NCBI GenBank assembly: GCA_002869265.1
Contig: PKTH01000011.1
Location: 10,843 to 74,842, forward strand
Reading direction: 5' to 3'
DNA from: Candidatus Parcubacteria bacterium
Lineage (GTDB): Bacteria; Patescibacteriota; Patescibacteriia; Patescibacteriales; BM507
Length of the DNA stretch: 64,000 nt
In this document: positions 8,233 to 58,616 of the stretch, in pieces
Numbering within the stretch: the first letter of the stretch is position 1
Layout: every line of letters starts with the position of its first letter
The notes under the pieces: model-generated
Seen by the model: only the letters and a program-made list of their open reading frames with translations
Databases searched by the model: none
What the model was told of the DNA's origin: nothing
Made by a program: the position numbers and the translations under genes

Positions 8233-8502
8233 CTTCGTGATAGACATGATGTAGATAACCCATTTTCAGTCTTTCATTTATTTGATTATTATAATTTATT
8301 ACATGATAGTTATGACAATCCAAACATTGATTGTAACCTAGCTGGTATTCCAAACGCATGTGCAGTTAGGCCCGGTGTAAAGATTAAGGACAATTGGGGT
8401 TGGTGTAGTGATGCTCTTTTGGACACAAGCGATCCAACTAATATCTGTCCTGGTTTTGCTTATGAGATGTTTGATGGCAGGATAATTGTAAAAGAAAAGT
8501 AG
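8233..8502 (+). other. In-frame continuation of the giant ORF after its TAA stop (89 sense codons, then TAG)
   Basis: Same frame as 703..8232. Reads LRDRHDVDNPFSVFHLFDYYNLL...CNLAGIPNACAVRPGVKIKDNWGWCSD...ICPGFAYEMFDGRIIVKEK. Protein-like and Cys-containing, with no usable start codon near its 5' end. Confidence 0.6.
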
Positions 8503-8541
8503 TGATAGTAATAAATAATATTTGTAATTTAAATAAGCAGA

Positions 8542-9126
8542 ATGGCTAACGAACCTGGAAATCAAAATAGATCAGTTGATACAGACGTTTTGAGAAACGA
8601 GAGGATGGCTAATGAAATGAGAGAAAGTAAACAGCAGAAAAAAATAGAAAATCAGCAAGCCCTGAAAGAGGAGCAAGTAGAACAAGGGGAAGTCCAAGCG
8701 GAACCAGTAAATAAAGAGACCGGGCTAGCAACTAAAGGGAAAAAGAAAAAAAGTGTAAGTAAGAGAAAGTTATTGTTAGCAAGGAAACTTGAAAAAAAAA
8801 TTAAAAAAGAAAGATTTGATGGTTTACCTTTTTTTTCAGCAATAATTCTTGCACAAATAAAGGATATTATTGATATTTTGAGCTTGGGCACAGTTGGCAC
8901 GGTTCTTGGTTTCGTTATTGGACCAATGTTAGGGATAATAATGTGGTCGGTTGGAGAATCTAGTATTACGCTCAAGTTAAAAAGAGTGATAATCGTCAAC
9001 GTACTTGAGGATATACCTTTTTTGAATATATTGCCTATATGGACACTGGTGATTATATATATGAAGGTACAACATGACAACAAAGTGAGGCTTTATCAGC
9101 ATCAATTAAAGAGGTTGAGCAAATAG
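8542..9126 (+). CDS. Small membrane protein with Lys/Glu-rich N-terminus (T4SS-like cluster)
   Basis: 194-aa ORF. Charged N-terminal half and hydrophobic C-terminal half with 2-3 predicted TM segments. Ends 5 nt before the VirB6-like gene. Confidence 0.6.
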   Translation: MANEPGNQNRSVDTDVLRNERMANEMRESKQQKKIENQQALKEEQVEQGEVQAEPVNKETGLATKGKKKKSVSKRKLLLARKLEKKIKKERFDGLPFFSAIILAQIKDIIDILSLGTVGTVLGFVIGPMLGIIMWSVGESSITLKLKRVIIVNVLEDIPFLNILPIWTLVIIYMKVQHDNKVRLYQHQLKRLSK

Positions 9127-9131
9127 AATTT

Positions 9132-11621
9132 ATGAATTTGAATAAAATAAAAGAAAAAAATAAGAAAAAAATAGCATTTGCCTTTAGTGTTTTGTTTTTG
9201 TCTTTCTTTTTATTCTTTTCTGGTGCGCAGGGTGTTGATGCGGCCTGGTGGGACGCGGCTGTCGTGACAGTAGAAAAAATGGTTTTAATGCTCGTTGGGG
9301 GGTTCTTACAGATAATTGTCGGGGTAGTAGGGCTACTGGCGATGGTTGTTGTCCAAGCATTGATTTATATAGCTTCTTATAATAATTATGCCCATGAGGC
9401 AAGCGTGATAATGGCCTGGGGAGTGGTGAGGGATTTTTGTAATATGTTTTTTATACTAATTCTTTTAGTGATTGCCTTTGCTACTATTCTACGGATCGAA
9501 AGTTACAATATGAAACGCTGGCTTCCTAAGCTTTTAATGATGGCAGTGTTGATAAACTTTTCTAAAACCATTGCATCCCTTATTATTGATGTTTCACAAA
9601 TTTTTATGCTCACTTTTGTTTCTGCCATAGGGACAACTGGTGGAGCGATAATTTCTGCATTAGGTGTTCAAGGTTATTTTGACATAGTCAGAACCCAAAT
9701 AACGGAAAACAGCAAGTCTCCAAATCTCTTATCTACAATAATTGGCCTTATAATGGGTACTATTTTCTTGATAATAGCAACAATAGTTTTGATAGTGTTT
9801 TTAGGAGCCTTAGTTATTAGGATGGTTATGCTGTGGGTTTACACTGTTTTATCACCTTTAGCTTTTCTTTTAGCTGCCTTTCCAGGTGGCCAGAGTTATT
9901 CATCAAGATGGTGGAGTGAGTTTACAAAAAATGTGATCTCAGGACCTGTTTTGATGTTTTTCTTCTGGTTGGGCCTTATTGCAGCAAACGGTTATACCCC
10001 CTCTACCGAGGTCACAAGCCAATGTTTTGGTCCTGTTTCATCTCTTTGCCCAGATAATTTTCTTCATTTCATTATCGCGATTGGGATGCTTGTTGGTGGG
10101 TTGATAGTGACCTCTCAGATTGGTGGCGCAGCTGGCGGCCTAGCCGGCAAAGGAATGGGAGCTATAAACAAAGGTAAAGCACTAGCCTTGAGGCCAGGTC
10201 AAAAGGCAGGCGCTTGGGCAGGAAGGAAGGCAAAAAGTGGAGCATTGGCTACTGGTAGAGCAGGCCTTGGTCTTGCTAGTGGGTTTGACAGAGTGGCAGG
10301 AGCTAAGCTGGGTCTTGAAGGAGGAGCTCTTAGTACAGCTAGTAGGTCAGCATTGAACACAATAACGTTCCAAGGAAGGAGAGAGAAGTGGAGAAAGAAT
10401 AGAGAGGATAAAATGGATGTATATAATAATCAAAGAGACATAAACAGGGTTGAGGCTATGTCTGAAAACAATGACGAAGAAAGAAAAGCCAAAGAAGAGG
10501 CGGCTAGAAACATAACAACAAAGGAAGGCGGTAAAGAATTCACCTATGACCTAGCTAGTAAGAAATTTGTCAGAAAAGATAAAGACGGAAATATAATTGA
10601 GGATAAAGAAGTTCAGAAAATGTCTGAAAGAAAGATGAGAATGCTTGAAGGTTATTCTTCTGCTCATAGTGTTGCAAATGCTACAAAGAAAGCAGCCGAA
10701 GAAGAATCGGTTGAGAAGAAGTCTAATGAGTATGCTCAATCTGGGAAATCATCACAAGAACTCTATAGAATGCTTAGCGATGGATCTCTTTCTTCTAGAG
10801 ACAAGAAGGCTGTTGCTCTTGCTCTAGGAAAAGATGCAGACCACATAGGCAGTATGTCTAGACAACAAGTGAAAGAAGTTAGGGATATCTTGGGTCAAAA
10901 TAAAGGTCTTCAAGATAAATTTGATGAACCAATGCTCAAAAAATATGCCCACAAGATATATAACATTAAAGAGGATGTTGGCAAACAAAAATATATAAAA
11001 GCACTTAAGAGCGGTAAAATTGATGATCATCTTCATGAAAGTGCTTTAGAGGATGCAAATGTCCATAAAATAATAAGGAGCGCTTCTCAGGCTAAGTATG
11101 AGAGAATGATGAAAAATGCTAAAGAGGATACAAGCACCAGGGATGCTGCTAAAAAAGGTCTCAAGGAAGCTTTTAATACTAGTGACAACTCGCTAATTAA
11201 TGGAGTGATAGATCCATTTAGACAGCATTTTTCCAATATGTCAGACAGCATAGGAGAAGCACTTGAGGGTGTTGTAGATCCTAATATTATTCGAAGTAGT
11301 GTAGAGCAAATTGTCCAGAATGCAAGCACAAGTGATATTGCTTCGTTGAATCACAGTAATTTTAATACACAAGCAGCGTCAAGATTGTTTAATGGAGATA
11401 GTGTGTTGATAGATGAGTTTAGAGACAGTTTCGATCAAAATATGATGTCGAGATTAGATCAAAGAGAGATGTCAAGACTTCGGTCAGCCGAAGGCTTGAG
11501 AGATTACAGAGACTTTGAAAGATTGCATAACGCAAGAAATGCTTCAACAAGTGGAGGTCAAAATCAATCAAACAATCCGCCAACTATTCCTGGTTATCAG
11601 AGTAACCAACACCAACCGTAA
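9132..11621 (+). CDS. Polytopic membrane protein, VirB6/TrbL-like, with a long hydrophilic C-terminal tail
   Basis: 829 aa. Signal-like N-terminus (FFSGAQGVDA|AWW), then about 6-7 TM segments over roughly 330 aa, a Gly/Ala-rich linker and a charged tail of about 450 aa. Topology and position upstream of PrgI-like/VirB4 fit VirB6/TrbL. No HMM search run. Confidence 0.55.
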   Translation: MNLNKIKEKNKKKIAFAFSVLFLSFFLFFSGAQGVDAAWWDAAVVTVEKMVLMLVGGFLQIIVGVVGLLAMVVVQALIYIASYNNYAHEASVIMAWGVVRDFCNMFFILILLVIAFATILRIESYNMKRWLPKLLMMAVLINFSKTIASLIIDVSQIFMLTFVSAIGTTGGAIISALGVQGYFDIVRTQITENSKSPNLLSTIIGLIMGTIFLIIATIVLIVFLGALVIRMVMLWVYTVLSPLAFLLAAFPGGQSYSSRWWSEFTKNVISGPVLMFFFWLGLIAANGYTPSTEVTSQCFGPVSSLCPDNFLHFIIAIGMLVGGLIVTSQIGGAAGGLAGKGMGAINKGKALALRPGQKAGAWAGRKAKSGALATGRAGLGLASGFDRVAGAKLGLEGGALSTASRSALNTITFQGRREKWRKNREDKMDVYNNQRDINRVEAMSENNDEERKAKEEAARNITTKEGGKEFTYDLASKKFVRKDKDGNIIEDKEVQKMSERKMRMLEGYSSAHSVANATKKAAEEESVEKKSNEYAQSGKSSQELYRMLSDGSLSSRDKKAVALALGKDADHIGSMSRQQVKEVRDILGQNKGLQDKFDEPMLKKYAHKIYNIKEDVGKQKYIKALKSGKIDDHLHESALEDANVHKIIRSASQAKYERMMKNAKEDTSTRDAAKKGLKEAFNTSDNSLINGVIDPFRQHFSNMSDSIGEALEGVVDPNIIRSSVEQIVQNASTSDIASLNHSNFNTQAASRLFNGDSVLIDEFRDSFDQNMMSRLDQREMSRLRSAEGLRDYRDFERLHNARNASTSGGQNQSNNPPTIPGYQSNQHQP

Positions 11622-12813: not shown

Positions 12814-14352
12814 ATGCTTGATTATTTAACAAAATTTAATGCTTTGCCAAAGTACTTGAAGGATAAAATGTCAGATCCTTCTATTTTGAGTGCAGTGAAG
12901 GCTATAGAGGAAAAGTATGATCTAAGTCTAGCAGCAACAATAATGAAAGTGATGGTAAAAGATATTTCTATTTTGGATTTATCTAAGTATTTTGTTTTCG
13001 AACATGATCTTTCAGGAGACAAGGCAGAAGAATTGGTTACTGAGTTAAAAAACAAGGTTTTGTATGTTGCCGCTGAACACCTGGGCTTAAAAGATGTTAA
13101 ACAAAAAGATTTGATTGGAATAGAGGATCAAGAAAAAGACAATGATGAAAACAGGGTAAAAAGCTCAAACTTTTTTTTCTCATCTGAGGATGAGGAGGAG
13201 GTTTCTAGCTTAACTCAGAAACTAGGCACTGTTGGGAAAGAGAAAAAAATAGATGAAAAAAAGATAGATAGTGTTATTAATGACGTTATTTTTGACACAG
13301 GAGTTAGTTTTAGCTCTTCAGATCTCTCTGAGCGTTTTATAAAGGTTTTGAAAACCTACACAAAAGGGGTAAGAAAAAGAATTGATACCAAATTAACTCT
13401 GGCAAAAGATGTAGACAAAGGTGGTCTCGGTATGAGTGGTGGACGAGTAGAGGAGGTTTTGAAACTGTTAGATAAAAAAAATAAAGAAAGCGGTTCGGAT
13501 ATCTTTGAAATAAAGCTTAAAGAAGATTCTCTGGATACAAAGCCAAAAATTGATCAATTAATAGAGAAGACCGAAAAGAACAACCATGACAAAGAAAAAA
13601 AATCTGGCCTAGAGAATTTTAGAAAAAAAGTTGATGCAGGGGCGCTAAACGAATCAAGAGATGTGGCTTATGACCTGTCGTCTATGCCTAAAAAGACTGA
13701 CACAAAAGATAAACAGTCATCAGCAAAAGAAAAGAACGTTACTGAAATCCCCAAAAAAGAGGCAAGTAGTAGTCCTAAGTTAGATGAAAAAGGTTTCCCA
13801 GTCGTAGGGACCCCAGTTATCAATAGCCTGCCAAATGTTAAAGAAAATATTCCCGAAAAAAAAGATTCTCCAGAAATAAAAAAACCACTCAAAGCACCGA
13901 TCAAGTCCGTTCAAAAAGAAAAAAATCTTGATGATCATATAGCGGGGAAAGATGGTAAATTCAAGCCAAGAATTGTGGCCCCCGAAACAGGGAAGAAAAG
14001 AGTAGAGGATGTGAAAGCGGTTCCGAGATTAATGGGCCCTATTGATGAGCTTTTAAATATGACAATTATTGATTTTCGAAGACTTGATTCTGACCCGATG
14101 AGAGCGGCAGCAAAAATAAAAGAAAAAATTGACCTACTTGGAGAAGACGGGATTAAGAAAAAATTGGAAGGTAAGGCCGCTTGGAGAAAAAGTAAAGTTT
14201 TTAAAGAGTATATAGATATTGGAAGGAAGGCAATTGGTCAGAAAAAACCAATTTACGAAGTTATTAATGATAAAACATTTAGCAATCAAGAGACATTGAA
14301 AGAAGCCGAATTTGAGGCCGTCTTAAATCTAAATAGAGAAATTAGATTTTAA
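12814..14352 (+). CDS. Hypothetical K/E-rich protein (T4SS-like cluster)
   Basis: 512-aa ORF. Its ATG directly follows the preceding TAA. N-terminus MLDYLTKFNALPKYLKD parallels that of the preceding gene. Long low-complexity Lys-rich middle region. Confidence 0.7.
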   Translation: MLDYLTKFNALPKYLKDKMSDPSILSAVKAIEEKYDLSLAATIMKVMVKDISILDLSKYFVFEHDLSGDKAEELVTELKNKVLYVAAEHLGLKDVKQKDLIGIEDQEKDNDENRVKSSNFFFSSEDEEEVSSLTQKLGTVGKEKKIDEKKIDSVINDVIFDTGVSFSSSDLSERFIKVLKTYTKGVRKRIDTKLTLAKDVDKGGLGMSGGRVEEVLKLLDKKNKESGSDIFEIKLKEDSLDTKPKIDQLIEKTEKNNHDKEKKSGLENFRKKVDAGALNESRDVAYDLSSMPKKTDTKDKQSSAKEKNVTEIPKKEASSSPKLDEKGFPVVGTPVINSLPNVKENIPEKKDSPEIKKPLKAPIKSVQKEKNLDDHIAGKDGKFKPRIVAPETGKKRVEDVKAVPRLMGPIDELLNMTIIDFRRLDSDPMRAAAKIKEKIDLLGEDGIKKKLEGKAAWRKSKVFKEYIDIGRKAIGQKKPIYEVINDKTFSNQETLKEAEFEAVLNLNREIRF

Positions 14353-14354
14353 AT

Positions 14355-14831
14355 ATGCAACAGTTTACAGTACCACAATTTATTGATGTAGAGGATAAAA
14401 TAATCGGACCAGTAACTACAAGACAATTTGTTATTATCTTGTCTGGCTCCTTGATTCTTTTTATTATTTTTAAATTTTTCAATCTACTTTACCTTTTAAC
14501 TGTTGGTAGCTTTGTGTTTATCAATATGGTGCTCTTTGCTTTTTTTAAAGTAGCAGGTAGACCGTTTCATTTTTTTGTTTTAAATTTTATTCAAACGCTT
14601 TTAAAAGCGGGGACTAGGGTTTGGCAAAATCTACCAGCAAGTGAAGAGAAGGAAGAAATAATGGTCCACAAGGTCGAGACGAAAAGAATAAAACAAAGAG
14701 AATATACTTCTTCTAGGCTAGCTGAGCTATCTTTGATTGTCGACACTCAGGGGAAATTTAAACATGAAAATGGAAGTGCTGATATAGAGAGCGGCCTAGG
14801 GATAAAAAATAAAATTAACGAGATTTTATAA
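14355..14831 (+). CDS. PrgI-family / VirB3-like small membrane protein
   Basis: N-terminus FTVPQFIDVEDKIIGPVTTRQFVIIL is followed by two TM segments. This is the signature of Gram-positive PrgI-family proteins. It sits upstream of VirB4. Confidence 0.65.
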   Translation: MQQFTVPQFIDVEDKIIGPVTTRQFVIILSGSLILFIIFKFFNLLYLLTVGSFVFINMVLFAFFKVAGRPFHFFVLNFIQTLLKAGTRVWQNLPASEEKEEIMVHKVETKRIKQREYTSSRLAELSLIVDTQGKFKHENGSADIESGLGIKNKINEIL

Positions 14832-14832
14832 T

Positions 14833-15522
14833 ATGACCAATAAAGGAAAATTAGCAAGGAATAAAGTACAAGCCTCAACACAGAAATATGTTGATATTGG
14901 TGAAATAAAAGAGGACACTGTAGTGATGCGTGATGGAACCATGAGGGCGGTTTTACTTGTCTCAAGTATTAATTTTGCTCTAAAGAGTGAAGAGGAGCAG
15001 AACGCAACTATCTCTTCTTATGTGAGCTTTTTGAATAATATAAGTTTCCCATTACAGATTATAATCCAGTCAAGAGAATTAAACATTGAAGAATATATTA
15101 TAAGGTTGAGGGAGAAGGAAAATGAACAAACCAACGAGCTTTTGAAAATGCAGACAGCTGACTATATTGCCTATATCCAAGAATTAGTTGATATGAGTAG
15201 AATTATGAACAAGAGGTTTTATGTGGTGGTTCCATATAACCCCTTATCAGACAAACAGAAAGGATTTTTTGCCAGGCTTTTCGATCTTTTTAGACCAGAC
15301 TCAGCCGTTAAAATGAGAGACAAAGCATTTAATAATAGACGCAAAGAACTAAACAGAAGAGTTGATAATGTTTTGGGTGGCCTAACCTCTATGGGTCTTA
15401 GCGCAGTTCAGCTAGACACTCAAAGTTTGATTGAATTGTATTATAATACATATAACCCTATTACATCGGCCAACGAAAAATTGGTTAAAACAGAAAAATT
15501 AAGGGTAAATAAACAAAACTAA
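14833..15522 (+). CDS. Hypothetical protein between PrgI-like and VirB4 genes
   Basis: 229-aa soluble ORF, 1 nt after the PrgI-like stop and 2 nt before the VirB4 start. No motif recognised. Confidence 0.6.
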   Translation: MTNKGKLARNKVQASTQKYVDIGEIKEDTVVMRDGTMRAVLLVSSINFALKSEEEQNATISSYVSFLNNISFPLQIIIQSRELNIEEYIIRLREKENEQTNELLKMQTADYIAYIQELVDMSRIMNKRFYVVVPYNPLSDKQKGFFARLFDLFRPDSAVKMRDKAFNNRRKELNRRVDNVLGGLTSMGLSAVQLDTQSLIELYYNTYNPITSANEKLVKTEKLRVNKQN

Positions 15523-15524
15523 TT

Positions 15525-17420
15525 ATGGTTAATTTTAAAAAATTAAACAATTTAGATAGTAGCAAAGAAGAAGATAAATACTCCCAGGGACAGCAAAAGA
15601 CAAATATTGATGTAACTAAAGATCTTATCGAAGAAGAGAAGGAATATAGAAGAGGTTCCTTGTCTATTAGGGACTTGATTGCTCCTGCAAGCTTTCAGGT
15701 TAACCCAAGTTATTTAATGCTCGGGGACAAGTTTGTCAGAACAATATTTGTAATCACGTATCCTCGTTATATTAGTGTTGGGTGGTTCGCTCCGGTTATC
15801 AATCTTAACTCTACTTTTGATGTTTCAATGTTTTTCTATCCGGTTAACAATACCATGGTTTTGAAACAGCTGAAAAACAAGGTTGGTGCCCTTGAAGCTC
15901 AAATCATTTCTGATGCTGAGAAAGGAGCAGCTCGTGACCCATTAAGAGAAACAGCCTTGAGAGATATTGAAGCACTAAGAGATGCCCTAACCCAGGGAAT
16001 AGAAAAGTTTTTCCAATTTGCACTATATGTAACTCTTTACGCTGACTCAAAGAAAGAGCTTGATAGAATGTCGGATGAGGTTGAAGATATATTTGGTTCA
16101 CGCTTAGTTTATTCTAGAAGAGTTTTTTATCAAGCTGAGCAAGGATTCAATTCGACTATGCCTCTGGGTAATGACGAATTATATATTGCTTTCAATATGA
16201 ATTCATCACCGATTGCTTCTTCTTTTCCTTTTATTTCTAGTGAGCTTACAAGTGATAATGGTATTTTGTATGGAATTAACAGACATAATAATAGTTTGAT
16301 ACTCTTTGATAGATTTAGTTTGCAAAATGCTAATACGGTTGTATTTGCTACTTCCGGTGCTGGTAAAAGTTATGCTATTAAATTAGAGGTGTTAAGGAGT
16401 TTGATGCTAGGAACGGATGTTATGATTATCGACCCGGAGTTTGAGTATAAATATCTATCGGATGCAGTTGGAGGGACTTATATTAATGTTTCTTTATCAT
16501 CTGAGAACAAGATTAACCCCTTTGACTTGCCAAGATCAATTGGAGGAGACTCTAAAGCAGGGGATATAATTAGAAGTGCTGTTATAACTGTAAAGGGGCT
16601 TATTAGACTTATGCTTGGTGATCTAACCCATGAAGAAGATTCGATAATTGACAGAGCACTCTTGGAAACTTATGCTAAAAAAGACATAACCCCAGAAAGT
16701 GATCTCAATAATATAGAGCCCCCAGTTATGCAGGACTTTCAAGACGTTTTGGAAGGAATGGAGGGTGGAAACAGTCTTGCGCTTCGTTTGAAAAAATATA
16801 CCGAAGGAACTTTCTCAGGACTTTTTAATAGCCCCACCAACGTTGAGATGGACAACAACTTGGTTTGTTTCAGTGTTCGTGATTTAGAAGATGAGCTGAG
16901 ACCTATTTCAATTTATACTGTCGTAAATTATATTTGGAATGTGGTTAGGTCAGAGATGAAGAAGAGAATATTGGTAATAGATGAGGCTTGGTGGTTGATG
17001 CAACACGAGGATTCAGCAAAGTTTATATTCGCCCTGGTTAAGAGATGCAGAAAATACTATCTGGGTGTAACCACGATCACACAAGATGTAAATGACTTTT
17101 TAACTTCTCCTTATGGACAAGCTATTGTTACCAACTCATCTTTGCAACTACTTCTGAAGCAATCTACAGCCGGGGTCGATCTTATTCAGAAAACCTTTGC
17201 CCTAACGGAAGGAGAAAAATATTTACTTTTAGAGTCTGGTCTTGGTGAAGGGATTTTCTTTGCGGGTTCAAAGCATGCGGCAATAAAAATAGTCGCTTCA
17301 TATACAGAAGACCAACTAATCACATCTTACCCAAGACAATTAATGCAGATAGAAGACTCTAAAAAAGAATTTGACGAGAGTTTGGCCGATGAATATGATA
17401 CTAATCGGAGTGAAGAATAA
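15525..17420 (+). CDS. virB4: VirB4/TrbE/PrgJ-family type IV secretion ATPase
   Basis: 631 aa. Walker A VVFATSGAGKSYAIK, Walker B RILVIDEAWWLM, then VTTITQD. The N-terminal domain pattern (YPRYISVGWFAPVIN) is typical of VirB4. Confidence 0.85.
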   Translation: MVNFKKLNNLDSSKEEDKYSQGQQKTNIDVTKDLIEEEKEYRRGSLSIRDLIAPASFQVNPSYLMLGDKFVRTIFVITYPRYISVGWFAPVINLNSTFDVSMFFYPVNNTMVLKQLKNKVGALEAQIISDAEKGAARDPLRETALRDIEALRDALTQGIEKFFQFALYVTLYADSKKELDRMSDEVEDIFGSRLVYSRRVFYQAEQGFNSTMPLGNDELYIAFNMNSSPIASSFPFISSELTSDNGILYGINRHNNSLILFDRFSLQNANTVVFATSGAGKSYAIKLEVLRSLMLGTDVMIIDPEFEYKYLSDAVGGTYINVSLSSENKINPFDLPRSIGGDSKAGDIIRSAVITVKGLIRLMLGDLTHEEDSIIDRALLETYAKKDITPESDLNNIEPPVMQDFQDVLEGMEGGNSLALRLKKYTEGTFSGLFNSPTNVEMDNNLVCFSVRDLEDELRPISIYTVVNYIWNVVRSEMKKRILVIDEAWWLMQHEDSAKFIFALVKRCRKYYLGVTTITQDVNDFLTSPYGQAIVTNSSLQLLLKQSTAGVDLIQKTFALTEGEKYLLLESGLGEGIFFAGSKHAAIKIVASYTEDQLITSYPRQLMQIEDSKKEFDESLADEYDTNRSEE

Positions 17421-22272: not shown

Positions 22273-22352
22273 AATAATATTGTAACATGCGTTTCGCAAC
22301 AATTGAAATCCTTCAAAATTAAAAAACAACCCCCGAGGGGCCATTTTTTCAT

Positions 22353-22636
22353 TGTGCTCTCGCCAGGGCCGATGCACCTCTTCGAGGTTTTCGGCATGTC
22401 GCACTAACACGTGCTCCAAATCGTGTTGTTCTGTCCAGGTTCTCAACCCAGCAAGAACCCAATAAAAAACAACCCTAGTCGGGATGTCTTTTCTTGTGCT
22501 CTCGCCAGGGCCGATGCACCTCATCGAGGTTTTCGGCATGTCGCACTAACACGTGCTCCAAATCGTGTTGTTCTGTCCAGGTTCTCAACCCAGCAAGAAC
22601 CCAATAAAAAACAAACCTAGTCGGGATGTCTTTTCT
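22353..22636. repeat. Two tandem 142-bp units (2 mismatches) abutting the 3' end of tRNA-Arg
   Basis: Units at 22353-22494 and 22495-22636 differ at two positions. Each starts (plus strand) with tgtgctctcgccagg, which copies the last 13 nt of the tRNA plus 2 nt of flank. A degenerate partial copy lies at about 22315-22352. Confidence 0.85.
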
Positions 22637-22638
22637 TG

Positions 22639-22710
22639 TGCTCTCGCCAGGAATCGAACCTGGACTTTGGGATCCGCAATCCCACGTTCTATCCGTTGAA
22701 CTACGAGAGC
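22639..22710 (-). tRNA. tRNA-Arg (anticodon GCG)
   Basis: Manual cloverleaf: acceptor GCTCTCG/CGAGAGC, D stem GTTC/GAAC, anticodon stem TGGGA/TCCCA with loop TTGCGGA, T arm CCAGG-TTCGATT-CCTGG, discriminator A. CCA is not encoded. Confidence 0.85.
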
Positions 22711-34512: not shown

Positions 34513-35016
34513 ATGAAAAAGAATAATCAAAAAGGTTTTACTCTTATTGAGTTGTTGGTAGTAATCGCCATTATTGGTCTTCTATCAACTCTAGCGGTTG
34601 TTTCTCTAAACAATGCTAGAACAAAGTCTAGAGATGCTAGACGTATTGCTGATGTTAAGCAGATACAAACAGCCTTAGAGCTTTATTTCACTGATAACGG
34701 TGAATACCCTGATCAGCCAGCAAGTGGTGTTTGCCCAGACTCTAGTACTGGTCACGTAGCAGCCGCTGGAAAGATTGCTGGTTGTTGTTTAGCTGAAACA
34801 GGTGGTTTCGCTGCAACATGTGGTGGTGGCACTACTTTCATGGGTGTTGTCCCTGATAATCCAGATCCAAATGGACAAGATTATGTATACACAGCCGATG
34901 TCTCTGGTTCATCAAATGATTCATATCACTTGGTTTACTTGCTTGAGGAAGACACCGCTGGTGTTGCTGGTGGAACTCCTCATAACGCTACTCCATCAGG
35001 TATTGTTGAAGACTAG
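34513..35016 (+). CDS. Type IV pilin (probable major pilin)
   Basis: Prepilin leader and cleavage/methylation motif (QKG|FTLIELLVVIAIIGLL) with Glu at +5. C-terminal domain has paired Cys. Own extended -10 (atgttataat, 34398-34407) and a strong terminator. Confidence 0.85.
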   Translation: MKKNNQKGFTLIELLVVIAIIGLLSTLAVVSLNNARTKSRDARRIADVKQIQTALELYFTDNGEYPDQPASGVCPDSSTGHVAAAGKIAGCCLAETGGFAATCGGGTTFMGVVPDNPDPNGQDYVYTADVSGSSNDSYHLVYLLEEDTAGVAGGTPHNATPSGIVED

Positions 35017-35037
35017 TACTTAACAATATTTCAAAAC

Positions 35038-35070
35038 AAAAAAACCTCTTTTAAGAGGTTTTTTTGTTGT
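35038..35070 (+). terminator. Rho-independent terminator after the pilin gene
   Basis: Stem AACCTCT / AGAGGTT with loop TTTA (35043-35060), followed by a T-run. Confidence 0.7.
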
Positions 35071-50000: not shown

Positions 50001-50342
50001 ATGAGATACCATGAAAAACTAAAAATCAAAATGGATCAATATGCACATATGGTTTATGGGCTTACAAAAAGTTTTCCAAAAGAAGAGCTTTATGGAGTCA
50101 CTTCTCAGTTGAGAAGATCGTCATTATCAGTTATCTTAAATTATGTTGAAGGGTTTGCTAGAAGAAAAGGAGATAACTGTAAGGTGTATAAAAATTTTTT
50201 GGAAATTTCTTATGGATCACTTAAAGAGTCAAAATATCTTTTACATTTTTCATTAGTGGAAAAATATTTAAGTGAAGACGATTATAAAAAAATTGCACCA
50301 CTCTCTGATGAGATAGGGGCAATGTTGTATAAAGCACTATAA
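50001..50342 (+). CDS. Four-helix-bundle protein (23S rRNA intervening-sequence protein family)
   Basis: 113 aa. FPKEELYGVTSQLRRSSLSVILNYVEGFAR ... ISYGSLKESKYLL matches the family pattern. Confidence 0.75.
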   Translation: MRYHEKLKIKMDQYAHMVYGLTKSFPKEELYGVTSQLRRSSLSVILNYVEGFARRKGDNCKVYKNFLEISYGSLKESKYLLHFSLVEKYLSEDDYKKIAPLSDEIGAMLYKAL

Positions 50343-53716: not shown

Positions 53717-53761
53717 TATTTTTTTGTGAGAAAATTCTTTAAATTTAGTAAAAAAATAGTT

Positions 53762-54919
53762 ATGTCAGATCAATACAAGGAGGTAGTAAGTAGAGGCTTA
53801 GGCTCTAGACTAATGAATTCAATCAAAGGAATATTGATTGGTCTTCTTTTGTTTGTGGTTTCATTTATTGTTTTGTATGTAAACGAAGGGAGAGTGGATC
53901 TTTCAAAGGTCGCCGAAGAGGCGATTCAAATAGATTTAAGTGAAGAGGTACAACTTGGTTTAGATGGACTGCTTATTTCTTCAACGGGTGAATTGAAATC
54001 AGACGAAAAAATAGGAGATACTTATCTAGTAGAAGGAGATTATCTTCTCATAAAAAGAGTTGTGGAGATGTATGCTTGGGAGGAGGAATCTCATTCAGAA
54101 ACAGAGAAAAATATTGGTGGCTCTGAAACAACAGAGACGACTTATACCTACACCACTAAATGGACAAGTTCTCCAAAAAGTTCTTCAAGGTTCAAAATAG
54201 AGGAGGGGCACACAAATCCTAAACTAAAGATTGATTCAAAGACTATTACAACAAAAAAAGCTATGCTGGGTTTATACGAGCTTGATACGGCGAGTGTTAG
54301 CTTGCCTCAACCTTTTAGTCTTGATCTTACAGAAGACAAGGTGATTGAAAAAGATTCTTTCAGACTTGTTGGAGATTATTTATACCAGGGGAACGGAACT
54401 CTCGGCAACCCGGCAGTTGGTGACTTGCGGATTAGTTATCTTGGCTTAGAGAATCCTATGGAGCGAGCAACTATTTTTGGTTCAATCAATGTTTCTCAAA
54501 AAAGTATCGAAGCCCATAGAGACAAAAAAGCAAAACTCTTCAGAGTTTTTGATGGTAGTAGAGAAGAGGCTATCACAAAGATGGCCACTGAACATTCGAC
54601 CATGACCTGGATTTTACGACTAGTTGGATTTTTTATGATGTGGTTTGGGCTTATGGCCCTATTTGGACCAATTTCCGTTGTCTTGGATATTCTCCCTACC
54701 TTTGGTTCAATCAGTCGTTTTAGTATTGGTCTAGTTTCATTTTTCGCTTCACTTGTTTTATCGGGGGTTACTATTATAGTTTCTAAAATAGCTCATAACC
54801 CAGTAGCTCTTTTTATGGTGGTTTTAATTTTTGTTGTGATAATGTTAAGCTATTTGAAAACCAAAAGAAAAAAGGGCTATGTCGACAAGGATGGAGGTAG
54901 TATCTTAAATAATATTTAA
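53762..54919 (+). CDS. TMEM43/DUF1625-like membrane protein
   Basis: N-terminal TM followed by VNEGR, a long extracytoplasmic beta-rich region and three C-terminal TM segments. An alternative GTG start lies at 53726. Confidence 0.5.
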   Translation: MSDQYKEVVSRGLGSRLMNSIKGILIGLLLFVVSFIVLYVNEGRVDLSKVAEEAIQIDLSEEVQLGLDGLLISSTGELKSDEKIGDTYLVEGDYLLIKRVVEMYAWEEESHSETEKNIGGSETTETTYTYTTKWTSSPKSSSRFKIEEGHTNPKLKIDSKTITTKKAMLGLYELDTASVSLPQPFSLDLTEDKVIEKDSFRLVGDYLYQGNGTLGNPAVGDLRISYLGLENPMERATIFGSINVSQKSIEAHRDKKAKLFRVFDGSREEAITKMATEHSTMTWILRLVGFFMMWFGLMALFGPISVVLDILPTFGSISRFSIGLVSFFASLVLSGVTIIVSKIAHNPVALFMVVLIFVVIMLSYLKTKRKKGYVDKDGGSILNNI

Positions 54920-55419: not shown

Positions 55420-55433
55420 TTTTTACCAAATAG

Positions 55434-55470
55434 AAAAGCTCAGCTATTTAGCTGAGCTTTTTGTTTTTTT
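55434..55470. terminator. Bidirectional rho-independent terminator
   Basis: Stem AAAAGCTCAGC / GCTGAGCTTTT with loop TATTTA, an A-run upstream and a T-run downstream. Lies between convergent genes. Confidence 0.7.
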
Positions 55471-55705
55471 ACAATGAGCTTATTGCTTTTTGAGCAATCT
55501 TTAAGTGTTCTGGGGAGCCAACAACCATGATATGGAAAGCTTCTGCCAGTAGGCGACAACCCATAATCTGAACAAGCGAGCTACCGGATATTACTCCTTC
55601 TTCTGAAAGTTCTTCAGCGCGTTCAATGATCTTGATTCCTTCTTGATTTTTGATCATATCAGGATTGTCTTTAACAAACTTTTTAACGTTCTCGACAGCA
55701 TACAT
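55469..55705 (-). CDS. Hypothetical small helical protein (78 aa)
   Basis: Strong SD (AAGGAGGAGAC) 7 nt upstream of the ATG. No homology recognised. Confidence 0.55.
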   Translation of the reverse strand: MYAVENVKKFVKDNPDMIKNQEGIKIIERAEELSEEGVISGSSLVQIMGCRLLAEAFHIMVVGSPEHLKIAQKAISSL

Positions 55706-55778
55706 ATATGTCTCCTCCTTAGAAAATGTTCAATATAAGAGCATTTAATCATAAAATAATATATCTGTCCATTTAGTA

Positions 55779-55826
55779 TTGACAAAGTAGACTAAAAGAT
55801 GGATAATGGTGAGGTTGTTTAACAAC
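55779..55826 (+). promoter_or_regulatory. Near-consensus sigma-70 promoter plus downstream inverted repeat (candidate operator)
   Basis: TTGACA (55779-55784), 17-nt spacer, GATAAT (55802-55807). The inverted repeat GTTGTT-T-AACAAC (55814-55826) lies between the -10 and the SD of the 55853 gene. Confidence 0.45.
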
Positions 55827-55852
55827 ATTGCTCATTTTAAAGAGGAGGCGAT

Positions 55853-56227
55853 ATGGAAAACCATATAGGAGAGAATTTCTATATTCGGGTAGAATGCCCG
55901 GTTTTCATAAAGCCTGGCTCTGCCACAATCATTAGTTTCAGAACTTCTGAACCCGCAAGAATCATAAAAATAGGTCAAGCATATAGCGAAATATCAAAAG
56001 AAGAAGAACTTTGTTTTATTGTCCAATTTGATGATGGTGAATTATTATCCATTCCGAGAAGATTAGAAAAATTAGGTCTACTAACAGTTATTGGAGGGGA
56101 GGATTTTTTAACAAAAAAAGAATTGCAAGAATATTCCAGTCGGAATAATAATCAAACATTCAAAGTGAAAAAAGGAGAGAGAAGTGGGAGAAATTCAACT
56201 GAAAACAATCGACGGCGAAGAGATTGA
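55853..56227 (+). CDS. Hypothetical protein with Arg-rich C-terminus (124 aa)
   Basis: SD AAAGAGGAGG upstream. The C-terminal tail reads KKGERSGRNSTENNRRRRD. No homology recognised. Confidence 0.6.
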   Translation: MENHIGENFYIRVECPVFIKPGSATIISFRTSEPARIIKIGQAYSEISKEEELCFIVQFDDGELLSIPRRLEKLGLLTVIGGEDFLTKKELQEYSSRNNNQTFKVKKGERSGRNSTENNRRRRD

Positions 56228-56342
56228 CGGCAAAATAATTTCGATAGAAATGTCTTTGGCAGGCAAAATATTGGTAGTTTCGTGCTCCGGCACAGAAAAA
56301 CATTTTATGCAAACACCAGCTGGCTTGAAACTCCTCAAATAA
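56184..56342 (+). CDS. Possible 52-aa ORF (GTG start) overlapping the 3' end of the previous gene
   Basis: GTG at 56184 is preceded by AAAGGAGAGAGAA. Reads VGEIQLKTIDGEEIDGKIISIEMSLAGKILVVSCSGTEKHFMQTPAGLKLLK*. A terminator follows directly. Below the ORF-track size cutoff. Confidence 0.3.
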   Translation: MGEIQLKTIDGEEIDGKIISIEMSLAGKILVVSCSGTEKHFMQTPAGLKLLK

Positions 56343-56350
56343 AATTTCAA

Positions 56351-56380
56351 AGCAGGATGAATAAATCCTGCTTTTCTTTT
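56351..56380 (+). terminator. Rho-independent terminator
   Basis: Stem AGCAGGAT / ATCCTGCT with loop GAATAA, then TTTCTTTT. Confidence 0.65.
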
Positions 56381-56440
56381 TACCGAAAATATGTCAAAGT
56401 ATAGTTATAACCCAAACCGTTCTTTGAAAGGAGGTGACAT

Positions 56441-56749
56441 ATGTCTGTTCCGAATATAAGTAAAAAAATGAAGAAAGAAGCCCTAGCCTTCCTTGAGCAA
56501 TGTGAATTGTTCGGAGAAAAAAACCTGGAAGGTAACCCCATTATTTTGGCGCATCAGTCAGAAAGCGATTTTGTACATCCCGACAATGGGAGCCCAGTAA
56601 ACCGTCGGCAGGGAAGACCAGCAATATCTTATTTTTACTTAAGCATAAATGTCGGCAGACAAGTATTTTCTGTCAGTGCAGTTGATAATCGAAATGTTGC
56701 TCGTTTTATGAAAAAGGGAGAAAAGAAAGATGATGATAAACGTATTTAA
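56441..56749 (+). CDS. Hypothetical protein (102 aa)
   Basis: SD AAAGGAGGTG 5 nt upstream of the ATG. No homology recognised. Confidence 0.6.
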   Translation: MSVPNISKKMKKEALAFLEQCELFGEKNLEGNPIILAHQSESDFVHPDNGSPVNRRQGRPAISYFYLSINVGRQVFSVSAVDNRNVARFMKKGEKKDDDKRI

Positions 56750-56786
56750 GAAACAGAAAAAAACAAAAACCTCCACTCAAACCAAC

Positions 56787-56817
56787 TAAAAGACCCAAAT
56801 TGAAAATGGGTCTTTTT
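56787..56817 (+). terminator. Rho-independent terminator
   Basis: Stem AAAAGACCCA / TGGGTCTTTT flanking a 9-nt loop, with a T-run. Confidence 0.6.
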
Positions 56818-56856
56818 ATTTGACAATATTAACAAAAAATGTTAAACATTAGATAT

Positions 56857-56985
56857 ATGGATAAAATAAATTTTAACAATCTAAACAAAGCTTACAGAAA
56901 CGCTCCAATTGGTGCGGGTCTTATGGTTTCTGGAACCAGAAAATCCAGCAAGCTTTTGTTTAGACGTGGTAAGTTTATTATGTAA
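56857..56985 (+). other. Self-contained promoter-to-terminator unit: leaderless 42-aa ORF or small RNA
   Basis: TTGACA (56820-56825), 17-nt spacer, TG-n-TAAACA (56841-56848). An ATG sits 9 nt after the -10 with no SD. The ORF reads MDKINFNNLNKAYRNAPIGAGLMVSGTRKSSKLLFRRGKFIM*. A strong terminator lies at 57005-57040. Confidence 0.25.
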
Positions 56986-57004
56986 TATTTGATTATTTTA
57001 GATA

Positions 57005-57040
57005 AAAAGACCTCGACTGAACAAAAGTCGAGGTCTTTTG
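57005..57040 (+). terminator. Rho-independent terminator
   Basis: 14-bp stem AAAAGACCTCGACT / AGTCGAGGTCTTTT with loop GAACAAA. Confidence 0.65.
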
Positions 57041-57078
57041 TATTCAGTGAATTTTGGTTCTTTTCAAAGGAGAAAAAA

Positions 57079-57648
57079 ATGAGAGAAGCAAAGTTTATCC
57101 AAGGCAAGCGTCTTTATCTACGTCCGGTTATGAAAGATGATGCAAATATCTTTCAAGTTTGGATCAATGATCGGGAAGTTACAAAATTTCTCGTGGTCAA
57201 CACTCCAGTAACCATGCAAATGCAAGAGAAGTGGGTAGAAGATAGGGCAGTAAATGATACATCTATGGTTCTTTCGATTGTTTTAAACAATGGCACTCTT
57301 ATTGGCAACATAGCCGTGAGGGACATTAATCGTGTGGATAGAACTGCTAACACCGGTTGTGTAATTGGCGAAAAGGATGAATGGGGTAAGGGCTATGGAA
57401 GGGAAGCAAAGATGCTTTTCCTGGATTATCTTTTTAACACGCTCAATCTTAGAAAGATTAATTCCACTGCCATAGCATTTAACGGCAGAAGCATTTCATA
57501 TCAAATGAAATGTGGGGCAGTTCAGGAAGGTTTGAAGAAAAAGCAAATCTTCCAAGATGGACAATATCACGACGAAGTTGTTTTAGCAGTATTTAAAGAG
57601 GATTTTGAAAAGCTATGGAAGAAAGAAAGTGGCAAATTTCTTTCTTAG
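57079..57648 (+). CDS. GNAT-family N-acetyltransferase (RimJ/RimL-like)
   Basis: Start at ATG 57079 (SD AAAGGAGAAAAAA), downstream of the 57005 terminator. GKRLYLRPVMKDDANIF..., ...IGNIAVRDIN..., and a Q/R-x-x-G-x-G/A-like GKGYGREA acetyl-CoA site. Confidence 0.85.
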   Translation: MREAKFIQGKRLYLRPVMKDDANIFQVWINDREVTKFLVVNTPVTMQMQEKWVEDRAVNDTSMVLSIVLNNGTLIGNIAVRDINRVDRTANTGCVIGEKDEWGKGYGREAKMLFLDYLFNTLNLRKINSTAIAFNGRSISYQMKCGAVQEGLKKKQIFQDGQYHDEVVLAVFKEDFEKLWKKESGKFLS

Positions 57649-57650
57649 TA

Positions 57651-57681
57651 AAAAAGCGCACAATTAATTTGTGCGCTTTTA
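57651..57681. terminator. Bidirectional terminator
   Basis: Stem GCGCACA / TGTGCGC with loop ATTAATT, flanked by an A-run and a T-run. Lies between convergent genes. Confidence 0.65.
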
Positions 57682-57807
57682 ATCTTTGAACTTTTCTTTT
57701 CTTTTTTTGCGGTGGTATTTTACTCGGTAGACGATCATTGGCATGGCAATGATAACTGTGATAAAGATCATGAAATAGTAAAGAGCGTCATCGTGACTTG
57801 CTTGCAT
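57679..57807 (-). CDS. Possible 42-aa hydrophobic/basic membrane peptide
   Basis: SD GAAAGGAGAGG 4 nt upstream of the ATG. Reads MQASHDDALYYFMIFITVIIAMPMIVYRVKYHRKKRKEKFKD*: one TM helix plus a Lys/Arg tail. Below the ORF-track size cutoff. Confidence 0.4.
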   Translation of the reverse strand: MQASHDDALYYFMIFITVIIAMPMIVYRVKYHRKKRKEKFKD

Positions 57808-57937
57808 AGCCTCTCCTTTCGCAAATGGTTTATGACAACATATCAAGCATAAAAACTATTGTCAATTAGAAAAATTAGTTAATAAATGCTATAATATAGA
57901 TAGTTCTTTACATTTCTCTTTTGAAAAAGGAGGAGTT

Positions 57938-58276
57938 ATGGATAAAATAACAATAGAAGAATTAGCAGATACTTTGGGACTCGAGGAGGAGCAAACAGAA
58001 ATTATTGATTTAAACCAAGAAATAGATGCAGAAGGAGTTGATTGGGTCCAAGAAGAAGGTGGAATTGTATATATTAGAGTAGGGGCAAGGCTAACAGAAG
58101 TGACCGCAGAACATGCGGGACATCCAAAGGATCGAGCAATAGTGGTGGTTCAGAATGGTTTGGAAATGCAATTTCCGGTCAAAGAAAGTCTGGGTTTTAG
58201 ATTTAGAGATGAAGACACTAAGAAGCCGTTCGAAACCCCGTACTACATGAGTGATATGATTTTTAATGATGAGTAA
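57938..58276 (+). CDS. Hypothetical acidic protein (112 aa)
   Basis: SD AAAAAGGAGGAG and an extended -10 (tgctataat, about 57885-57893) upstream, with a terminator downstream. No homology recognised. Confidence 0.6.
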   Translation: MDKITIEELADTLGLEEEQTEIIDLNQEIDAEGVDWVQEEGGIVYIRVGARLTEVTAEHAGHPKDRAIVVVQNGLEMQFPVKESLGFRFRDEDTKKPFETPYYMSDMIFNDE

Positions 58277-58278
58277 AA

Positions 58279-58306
58279 ATAAGCCCATTTTAAAATGGGC
58301 TTTTTC
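58279..58306 (+). terminator. Rho-independent terminator
   Basis: AAGCCCATTTT / AAAATGGGCTT palindrome followed by a T-run. Confidence 0.6.
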
Positions 58307-58316
58307 ATTTCTATAT

Positions 58317-58421
58317 AAACCAAGTCTAGGCACTAGGTGACTTGCCAAAGGACTTGGTTTTTTGCTAAAATATGCTAAAATATAGTGGTGAAAATAATTA
58401 AGTATAGAATTAATTCTATAC
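58317..58421 (+). promoter_or_regulatory. Control region of the AbrB-like gene: 10-bp inverted repeat, duplicated extended -10, perfect 20-bp palindrome
   Basis: AAACCAAGTC (58317-58326) pairs with GACTTGGTTT (58351-58360). -35 TTGCCA lies at 58342-58347. Tandem tgctaaaata x2 lies at 58363-58382. The palindrome GTATAGAATT|AATTCTATAC (58402-58421) ends 9 nt before the ATG. Confidence 0.45.
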
Positions 58422-58430
58422 ATAAATTTT

Positions 58431-58616
58431 ATGGCTAGAACAAACTTAGATGATCGTAATATTAGGAAATTATCGAGAGTGGGGAGTGGAAAAACATATA
58501 CAATCACTCTGCCAATAGAGGCTATTCGAAAGTTTGGTTGGCAGAAAAAGCAAAAACTGGAAGTGGAGGTAGATGAGGAGGGTAAACGTTTAATAGTTAA
58601 GGACTGGGAAAAATAG
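58431..58616 (+). CDS. AbrB/MazE/SpoVT-family DNA-binding protein (61 aa)
   Basis: The pattern KLSRVGSGKTYTITLPIEAIRKFGWQKKQKLEVEVDEEGKRLIVK fits the swapped-hairpin AbrB-like fold. Its stop lies 2 nt before the sugar transferase start. Confidence 0.65.
   Translation: MARTNLDDRNIRKLSRVGSGKTYTITLPIEAIRKFGWQKKQKLEVEVDEEGKRLIVKDWEK

Follow-up and report, generated by a model that had tools for sequence, protein, structure and literature searches.

Genomes of the candidate phyla radiation (CPR, or Patescibacteria) are rich in unexplained small genes, and the start of translation in these bacteria is poorly understood. Both matters are raised by an island of about 3 kb that we analyzed in a 64-kb stretch of DNA (hereafter 'the window'), part of a 128-159-kb contig from an uncultured Candidatus Parcubacteria bacterium. 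What kind of locus would bring together small genes that nearly all possess a strong Shine-Dalgarno (SD) sequence and a hairpin terminator, in a genome that is otherwise essentially SD-less? The island spans window positions 55433-58302, or 4.7% of the 64 kb, between a DUF805 gene and a long glycan operon headed by an AbrB/MazE-like gene. We propose that it is an array of autonomous cassettes, similar in design to the morons of prophages, which carry fast-evolving, lineage-specific accessory genes that are independently transcribed and preferentially translated; we estimate the probability of this reading at roughly 0.5. Our firmer statement is narrower: the island is a real feature that gathers SD-led genes within an SD-less genome, and the pattern recurs around a new family of small proteins. 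We consider it a lead, not a discovery.

Expression signals of the island

We distinguish eight candidate genes in the island: A78 (55469-55705, minus strand), B124 (55853-56227, plus), C52 (56184-56342, plus, with a GTG start and a 44-nt overlap with B124), D102 (56441-56749, plus), E48 (56839-56985, plus), GNAT (57079-57648, plus, 189 amino acids from the SD-led start that we chose), F42 (57679-57807, minus) and G112 (57938-58276, plus). All the ORFs (open reading frames) that an initial annotation of this DNA had named are present, namely those at 55469 on the minus strand, at 55853, 56441 and 57938 on the plus strand, and at the GTG codon at 56184. SD strength was measured as the anti-SD duplex energy upstream of each gene start. 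Seven of these genes (A78, B124, C52, D102, GNAT, F42 and G112) have a strong SD at normal spacing, with energies of -8.7 to -12.9 kcal/mol; E48 has none. The strong SD sequences already noticed on the small ORFs are thus borne out by duplex energy for A78, B124, C52, D102 and G112, and are found on GNAT and F42 as well. What had been overlooked is that the anomaly lies in these strong SD sites, since elsewhere the genome is essentially SD-less. To our knowledge, a cluster of SD-led genes within an SD-poor Parcubacteria genome has not been described so far.

Outside the island, the anti-SD energy of the 55 window genes averages -1.5 kcal/mol, compared to -1.7 kcal/mol at random positions, about 1.3% of which reach -9 kcal/mol. 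Counted by gene, SD-led starts are found in 7 of the 8 island genes versus 3 of 78 other genes of the genome (Fisher p = 1.7e-7). An extra 20 kb of flanking sequence shows a strong SD in 2 of 23 genes (a DsbA paralog and a 107-amino-acid hypothetical protein), and a scan of the whole window for SD-led starts returned, outside the island, only one site that matches a true gene start, that of the major type IV pilin (34513-35016). This pilin gene is monocistronic, has its own strong TG-extended promoter and a terminator with a 15-bp stem at 35035-35068, and is the only other gene of the window to combine an SD, a strong promoter of its own and a very strong terminator. Operon-first genes, including pilM, tyrS and the AbrB-like gene, also lack an SD, so the contrast is not an effect of operon position. 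SD-poor translation as such is already known from the group: only around one half of Parcubacteria have a detectable anti-SD motif, anti-SD usage varies within the group, and subgroups occur with and without the motif (PMC9297842).

Terminators are also dense in the island. When we scanned the full 64 kb under strict criteria, requiring a perfect stem of 8 bp or more with no fewer than 3 GC pairs and a T-rich tail, we identified 10 plus-strand terminators, of which 6 lie inside the island; a binomial estimate for such a share in 4.7% of the window is about 2e-6. A separate terminator scan found 9 against 4.5 in shuffled sequences. The initial annotation had mapped six clean hairpin terminators and had opposed the modular, self-contained units of the island to the long, terminator-poor operons nearby; the strict scan upholds both statements. 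All six are bidirectional (A-tract, stem, T-tract), stand directly 3' of stop codons and have the same style as the few terminators at the ends of host operons, for example the one after the pilin gene. T1 (55433-55462, 13-bp stem) is common to the DUF805 gene on the plus strand and A78 on the minus strand. T2 (56349-56374, 10-bp stem) ends the B/C unit. T3 (56788-56816) ends D102, and its T-run continues directly into the -35 box of the next unit, unit E (TTTTTATTTGACA), which is closed in turn by T4 (57005-57039, 14-bp stem). T5 (57652-57680) is common to the convergent genes GNAT (plus) and F42 (minus), and T6 (58281-58302) ends G112; a seventh hairpin follows it at 58318-58359. These terminators split the region into six or seven mini transcription units.

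Promoter sites matching at least 10 of the 12 consensus positions are correctly placed upstream of A78, B124, F42 and G112, where they form two divergent pairs. Within 55756-55807, a sigma-70-type promoter for A78 on the minus strand (TTGTCA-16/18-TATATT/TATTAT) overlaps the plus-strand promoter of the B/C unit (TTGACA-17-GATAAT, 11 of 12 positions). Within 57837-57895, the promoters of F42 (minus, TTGACA-17-TATGTT) and G112 (plus, TAGAAA-17-TATAAT), both of the extended TG type, stand back to back. D102 has a putative promoter at 56377-56405 (plus) with a good -10 box, TATAGT, and a weak -35. Unit E has a TTGACA box with a -10-like element. GNAT is the exception: T4 lies between all candidate promoters and the GNAT SD at 57066, and no promoter space is left between the hairpin and this SD, so GNAT must rely on read-through of T4, which may act as an attenuator for it. 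The initial view that each unit has its own promoter therefore stands for most units (fully for A78, B124, F42 and G112, in part for D102 and unit E) and fails for GNAT.

The 29-nt stretch containing the putative D102 promoter is 79% identical to the promoter region of the AbrB-like gene at 58358-58386 (repeat family D5). The two copies have in common the motif ...AAAATATG..AAA.TATAGT, and each comes directly after the T-run of a terminator. Judging from this motif, co-regulation of D102 and the AbrB operon is possible; a chance likeness in AT-rich DNA is possible too.

Unit E (56820-57000, plus strand) starts with a promoter of the form TTGACA-N17-(TG)TTAAA at 56820-56846, in which the -10-like element, TGTTAAA, is extended and the TTGACA box is continuous with the T-run of T3. 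There follows a long, imperfect hairpin of about 145 nt, inside which E48 lies. Its folding z-score is -4.1 without the terminator (on either strand) and -6.7 with it, and in a ranking of 156-nt windows of the 64 kb by degree of structure, unit E is in the top four, alongside tRNAs and the spacer between G112 and the AbrB-like gene. Neither unit E nor the other island hairpins match any Rfam family at the gathering threshold, which only tRNAs pass in the window; sub-threshold matches in the island are terminator look-alikes. The possibility of a repeated element resembling a miniature inverted-repeat transposable element was discarded, the core of unit E being unique in the window. The folding data suggest that unit E is probably a structured small non-coding RNA, or a leader or attenuator of GNAT, rather than a 48-amino-acid gene. 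Two candidates of less than 50 amino acids had been listed for the island, E48 and F42; both exist as ORFs, and for the former a structured RNA is the more likely product.

Products of the island and the A78 family

To assess coding capacity, we trained a codon log-odds score on 39 long genes of the window and took wrong-frame ORFs as the null. The 95th percentile of the null is reached or exceeded by A78, B124, C52, D102, E48, G112 and GNAT, with G112 and A78 above 99%, and the antisense and alternative ORFs of the region all score like the null. The score of F42 is ambiguous, as expected of a hydrophobic peptide of 42 amino acids. Based on codon scores and SD sites, we are confident that A78, B124, C52, D102, G112 and GNAT are genes; F42 probably is one, and E48 is doubtful.

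Homologs were sought with HMMER, using the concatenated B, D, G, A and C products against 1.84 billion representative proteins. B124, C52, D102 and G112 returned self-matches only, and G112 on its own found only itself among 5.8 billion proteins (clusters). The 90% clusters of the orphans contain only copies from the same genome, with one or two members each. No match was found for B124, D102 and G112 in IMG/VR or among PDB sequences, nor for the four in INPHARED phages or in PLSDB plasmids; Pfam, PADLOC, PHROGs and NCBIfam have nothing for the A to G products other than GNAT. By these sequence comparisons, B124, C52, D102 and G112 are true lineage-specific ORFans. The absence of recognisable homology that had been ascribed to the five named small ORFs thus applies to these four and not to A78, which has a small family of 29 homologs. 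Since the four products have no detectable relative in the searches made, they belong neither to a conserved core nor to housekeeping families, in agreement with the initial annotation. No signal peptide was seen by eye in the island products.

The ORFans differ widely from one another. B124 has the SD AGAGGAGG and, at its C-terminus, a tail that is basic and of low complexity. C52 has its own SD (AAAGGAGAG) and is read in the +1 frame relative to B124; the point where its frame opens, 56169, is part of an A6 run (56168-56173, GTG AAA AAA GGA). B124 and C52 could be two coupled genes, or a single gene that is split by a frameshift or uses slippage. We rejected two other ideas for lack of similarity, that B124 and C52 are paralogs of each other and that B124 is related to a small ORF beside a TMEM43 gene in another contig (L003). 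D102 is basic and has the strongest SD of the window (AAAGGAGGTGA, -12.9 kcal/mol). G112 stands out for its strong acidity (net charge about -17, pI 4.25) and has a strong SD along with the best coding score of the island; an AlphaFold model of G112 alone, at pLDDT 37, is unusable. F42, which is missing from public gene calls, consists of one hydrophobic helix and a polybasic tail (RVKYHRKKRKEKFKD), its hydrophobic core being YYFMIFITVIIAMPMIVY, and has the SD AAAGGAGAGG.

GNAT is the single acetyltransferase that had been recognized in the island, and it matches Pfam Acetyltransf_3 end to end (3e-22; 80 bits for a cut-off of 25). Its closest solved relatives are SpeG spermidine N1-acetyltransferases (PDB 6vfm, 9e-13). 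Against the NCBIfam SpeG equivalog NF011709 it scores 53.7 bits, below the cut-off of 218, and PseH is the next-best model. GNAT is therefore best called SpeG-like, with membership assigned at the level of the GNAT superfamily; from sequence, a PseH-like sugar N-acetyltransferase beside the glycan operon would be equally possible.

A78, which has the strong SD AAGGAGGAG, belongs to a rare, conserved family of small proteins. Its 29 homologs among the representative proteins were found at 1e-3 to 9e-11, with 35-50% identity, and are mostly 72-90 amino acids long. The family is unnamed and is defined here by a length of about 75-90 amino acids, an N-terminal MYAxxN[VI]xKF motif, a central ILxRA followed by SGG.[IV].EIM, and a C-terminal FH...DPEH. 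Positions Y2, K9, F10, I26, R29, A30, L53, F57 and H67 are invariant or nearly so in the alignment, and the family profile recovers the window protein at 7e-25. Modelled with the family alignment, A78 is predicted to form a five-helix domain (pLDDT 96, pTM 0.86); a Foldseek search with this model against PDB and BFVD returned nothing better than E = 1.7. The model thus points to a real, rare family without structural relative in PDB and BFVD. Some long homologs have C-terminal extensions that look MazG-like, a likeness that we set aside for want of Pfam or PDB support.

We examined the gene neighbourhoods of A78 homologs in six other genomes (L015, L017, L018, L022, L023 and L026). The homolog is SD-led in all six, with energies of -7.7 to -13.3 kcal/mol, and is followed by a terminator hairpin in five, none being evident in L023. 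Its recognisable neighbours (pyrF, miaA, uvrC, radC, bro-N and phd/parE) have no SD; small unannotated neighbours in L022, L023 and L026 have a strong one. The other island orphans are not encoded near A78 homologs. A further context (L019, 1300-3970) looks like a mobile element: an SD-led A78 homolog stands directly upstream of SD-less genes for RadC, a Bro-N protein and a Phd/ParE pair.

The most telling case is L026 (contig k141_281706 of ERZ27315667, also found as JGI Ga0208904_1000211), where positions 7940-10400, beside an SD-less rpsL-rpsG-fusA-tuf-rpsJ operon, form an overt tandem array of at least seven units of about 400 bp, each with the layout promoter-X-terminator. Each unit begins with the junction terminator-TTTTTTTATTGACA, that is, 'terminator-T7-8-ATTGACA'. 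Four paralogous units seem to be non-coding; they have in common a TTGACA-N-TGATAAG promoter and a conserved long-range stem, CTTCAGC...GCTGAAG, their terminator stems show compensatory changes, and Rfam contains no match for them. Small SD-led proteins are the products of the remaining units, among them the A78 homolog and a pair of paralogous membrane peptides. The combination of this junction with a TTGACA-N-TGnTAA promoter occurs exactly once in our window, at unit E. The genes for S10, S7, S12 and EF-G in L026, of a class typically expressed at a high level, lack an SD, that of EF-Tu having only a weak one, which argues against an SD being simply a mark of high expression. To judge by these six contexts, the island design does recur elsewhere.

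Neighbourhood and sequence reliability

The same sequence was assembled independently by JGI (sample 3300007102), ENA, NCBI and Logan, and the public assemblies show only 5 differences in 20 kb. The agreement of four independent assemblies means that the island is not an assembly chimera. The NCBI proteins are PLX21792-PLX21798 (locus tags C0584_016xx).

The chromosome around the island is typical of CPR bacteria, with a type IV secretion-like operon, radA, recG, tyrS, a type IV pilus operon (pilM, pilB, pilT, pilC and pilin), glycan genes and the series ligA-gatC-gatA-dsbA-ppa. Locally, the order is tRNA-Ser (2.3 kb upstream of the island), three membrane-protein genes (encoding a 206-amino-acid protein, a TMEM43-like protein and the DUF805 protein), the island, and the AbrB/MazE-like gene (58431-58616), which leads the glycosyltransferase operon and is followed by a sugar transferase gene. 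To look for synteny in GTDB genomes and JGI metagenomes, we took the TMEM43-like gene (53726-54919) as the anchor. Its relatives are 38-53% identical and have no other window gene in common with ours. The two closest metagenomic relatives (L008 and L014, 51-53% identity) both lie at the very end of their contigs.

The boundary with the glycan operon (58318-58430, plus strand) holds the second long hairpin after G112 (58318-58359), just upstream of the SD-less AbrB/MazE-like gene. Tandem extended -10 boxes (twice TGCTAAAATA, 58363-58383) and a perfect 20-bp palindrome (GTATAGAATTAATTCTATAC, 58402-58421) follow, and no other 156-nt window of the 64 kb is as structured as 58267-58422. The palindrome may be an operator for autoregulation of the AbrB/MazE-like gene.

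Several features elsewhere in the window deserve mention. The 3' end of a tRNA-Arg gene (..CCTGGCGAGAGCACA) is repeated twice downstream in a tandem duplication of about 142 bp (22327-22710, minus strand), with copies near 22650, 22510 and 22368 and a terminator-like hairpin after each. These repeats lie within an annotated N-terminal extension of recG, which is thus probably spurious; the pattern looks like scars of att sites or a tandem duplication at a tRNA gene. The contig also has two genes of the 23S-rRNA-IVP or bAvd-like four-helix-bundle type, about 60 kb apart: one adjoins gatA and the other ferredoxin/POR genes, and their positions are 50001-50342 of the window and 646-1026 of L025. 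A giant protein of 2509 amino acids (2599 in the JGI gene call) is encoded at 703-8232 and has a weak CBM_4_9 match. Finally, 12814-17420 contains a type IV secretion-like cluster (PrgI-like protein, VirB4/TraG-like ATPase) among large proteins without Pfam domains.

Competing explanations and known systems

As we picture it, the island would comprise six or seven compact expression cassettes, each made of a sigma-70-type promoter, a strong SD, an ORF of 42-189 amino acids and a bidirectional terminator. They would encode the four ORFans, A78, the SpeG-like GNAT and the F42 membrane peptide, unit E probably being a structured non-coding RNA. Provided that the host ribosome is able to use the SD sites, the cassette genes would enjoy independent and probably privileged expression, in both transcription and translation; preferential translation would follow from the fact that the few strong SD sites of the cell are in the cassettes. 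Lying between membrane-protein genes and the glycan operon, the site may be a permissive gap in which accessory genes have accumulated; these would not form a single co-operating system.

Several facts weigh against this picture. Orphan status alone is weak evidence in a poorly sampled, fast-evolving lineage, and no close relative genome was found in GTDB or JGI, the best TMEM43 relatives being 50-53% identical and not syntenic. No promoter could be identified for GNAT itself, and E48, whose codon score is coding-like, might be a real SD-less gene. The tri- and tetranucleotide distance of the island ranks 60 to 87 among 123 windows, which is typical of the host. Pfam tables show no integrase or transposase within about 10 kb on either side, the 3' end of tRNA-Ser is not duplicated, and no flanking repeat exceeds chance. 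Lastly, the 3' end of 16S rRNA lies outside the window, and we infer SD use by the host ribosome.

In another explanation, the products would be native, highly expressed small regulatory or stress proteins, belonging to core physiology rather than to an accessory pool, with SD, promoter and terminator together marking high or rapid expression. The major pilin, the only other SD-led, terminator-bounded monocistronic gene of the window, speaks for it, as do the host-like composition and codon usage of the island, the resemblance of its terminators to those of host operons, and the presence of A78 in several genomes. However, S10, S7, S12 and EF-G in L026 do without an SD, and EF-Tu nearly so, right beside small orphans that have one, and it is unexpected for core regulators that B124, C52, D102 and G112 should have no homolog among 15 billion proteins. 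We regard this explanation as possible, if somewhat unlikely. The case is much poorer for the idea that most small ORFs are not genes and that the region is mainly non-coding, consisting of small RNAs and decayed sequence. Without homologs, purifying selection cannot be shown; E48 lies without SD in a long hairpin, the codon score of F42 is ambiguous, and the degree of structure in intergenic parts of the island is among the highest in the window. Seven starts nevertheless have a near-consensus SD at correct spacing, at an energy range that few random positions attain; A78, B124, C52, D102 and G112 outscore 95-100% of wrong-frame ORFs, whose level the antisense and alternative ORFs do not exceed; and A78 is conserved with a confident predicted fold. 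We find the non-coding explanation scarcely credible.

Expression signals unlike those of other host genes, a tRNA-Ser gene nearby and an intervening TMEM43 gene without conserved synteny in relatives could instead evoke a recently acquired insert (a decayed prophage, or a fragment of an integrative element or plasmid) that would retain the signals of an SD-using donor. The GC content, GC3 (GC at third codon positions) and codon scores are close to host values, as is the oligonucleotide rank; the initial annotation had seen no integrase or flanking direct repeat, and this remains true, the tRNA 3' end being unduplicated as well. There are no phage genes within 10 kb on either side, PHROGs is negative, IMG/VR, INPHARED and PLSDB contain no relative, and concordant assemblies dismiss a chimera. 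The island thus shows no sign of recent acquisition or mobility, and we judge such an insert very improbable. Neither a prophage, for which both flanking phage genes and deviating composition are absent, nor a tRNA-targeted integrative island, for which we saw neither recombinase nor tRNA-Ser 3' repeat, is indicated. An integron array is not suggested either: there is no integrase, and the hairpins are ordinary terminators with unrelated stems, although no dedicated attC model was run; moreover, the cassettes have their own promoters and mixed orientations. The initial annotation had favored accessory functions such as defence, toxin/immunity or anti-host factors, and cassettes of this design are indeed typical of toxin and defence genes, a point of general background. 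F42 could be a type I toxin, G112 a DNA-mimic anti-restriction protein, and A78 with B/C, or F42 with G112, regulator-effector pairs. F42 has the small size, single transmembrane helix, polybasic tail, SD and promoter of a type I toxin, and only the convergent GNAT transcript and the common terminator T5 overlap its 3' end; G112 has the charge of a DNA mimic, and the A78 homolog of L019 adjoins RadC, Bro-N and Phd/ParE. Yet the orphans have no match in PADLOC, Pfam, PHROGs or NCBIfam, phage or plasmid relatives were not found, composition is host-typical, and charge and size are mere resemblance. PADLOC-DB gave nothing at E <= 0.01, a Csn2 hit for B124 (E = 0.026, 12 bits) being noise. No toxin or antitoxin domain of type II systems is recognisable in the A to G products, the sole protein of MazE/AbrB fold heading the glycan operon. 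GNAT resembles SpeG rather than the GNAT toxins of TacAT, AtaRT or KacAT systems and is preceded by unit E and a terminator, not by a ribbon-helix-helix (RHH) antitoxin, E48 having no RHH or DUF1778 match. A defence or toxin role has thus gained no support, and we hold it to be improbable.

Whatever their role, the cassettes reveal two translation-initiation regimes in one genome. One may go further and propose that SD-led arrays of mini-cassettes, with tandem units made of a promoter, an SD-led small ORF or a small RNA, and a terminator, form a distinct, recurrent compartment of SD-poor CPR genomes, marked by A78, subject to rapid turnover and, as the bearer of the only strong SD sites of the cell, privileged in translation. 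Such a compartment might serve as a reservoir of factors for host interaction, phage resistance or regulation, which some mechanism would spread or generate. This extension is speculative, and we think it unlikely to hold as a whole. If the pattern were general, it would offer a simple criterion, readable from sequence, by which a special class of CPR genes could be found, those for small proteins and RNAs that evolve fast and are expressed autonomously, with the A78 family as a marker for such loci; if only local, the island would be an ordinary patch of lineage-specific hypothetical genes.

Four kinds of known systems and one protein family invite comparison. GNAT resembles acetyltransferases of the SpeG/RimJ type in its end-to-end Acetyltransf_3 domain and in its match to solved SpeG structures at about 1e-12, and differs in falling far below the SpeG equivalog cut-off. 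F42 recalls type I toxins of the Fst, Ldr and TisB kind in size, single hydrophobic helix, basic tail and tightly bounded unit, without sequence relation to the toxin families of Pfam, PADLOC or PHROGs. Bacteroidota and cyanobacteria provide examples of SD-poor genomes that keep the SD on a few genes. The likeness is plain, most genes being SD-less and a small minority having a strong canonical SD; we know of no description of such a minority as clustered arrays of small orphans.

Prophage morons, described by Hendrix and colleagues, are autonomous promoter-gene-terminator units inserted between phage genes. The island resembles them in its self-contained modules, with their own promoter and factor-independent terminator, and in its small, apparently unrelated products mostly of unknown function. 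The complete arrangement is found in A78, B/C, F42 and G112, is weaker in D102 and unit E, and is absent from GNAT. The island differs in having several tandem units, native composition and no prophage context within 10 kb on either side. Islets of ORFans and hypothetical proteins are also widely reported in CPR genomes, and our island is like them in presenting small lineage-specific proteins without homologs between the conserved operons of a reduced genome. It stands apart by its SD sites, present on seven of eight genes in an SD-less genome, by its dense terminators, and by the recurrence of A78 in similar settings.

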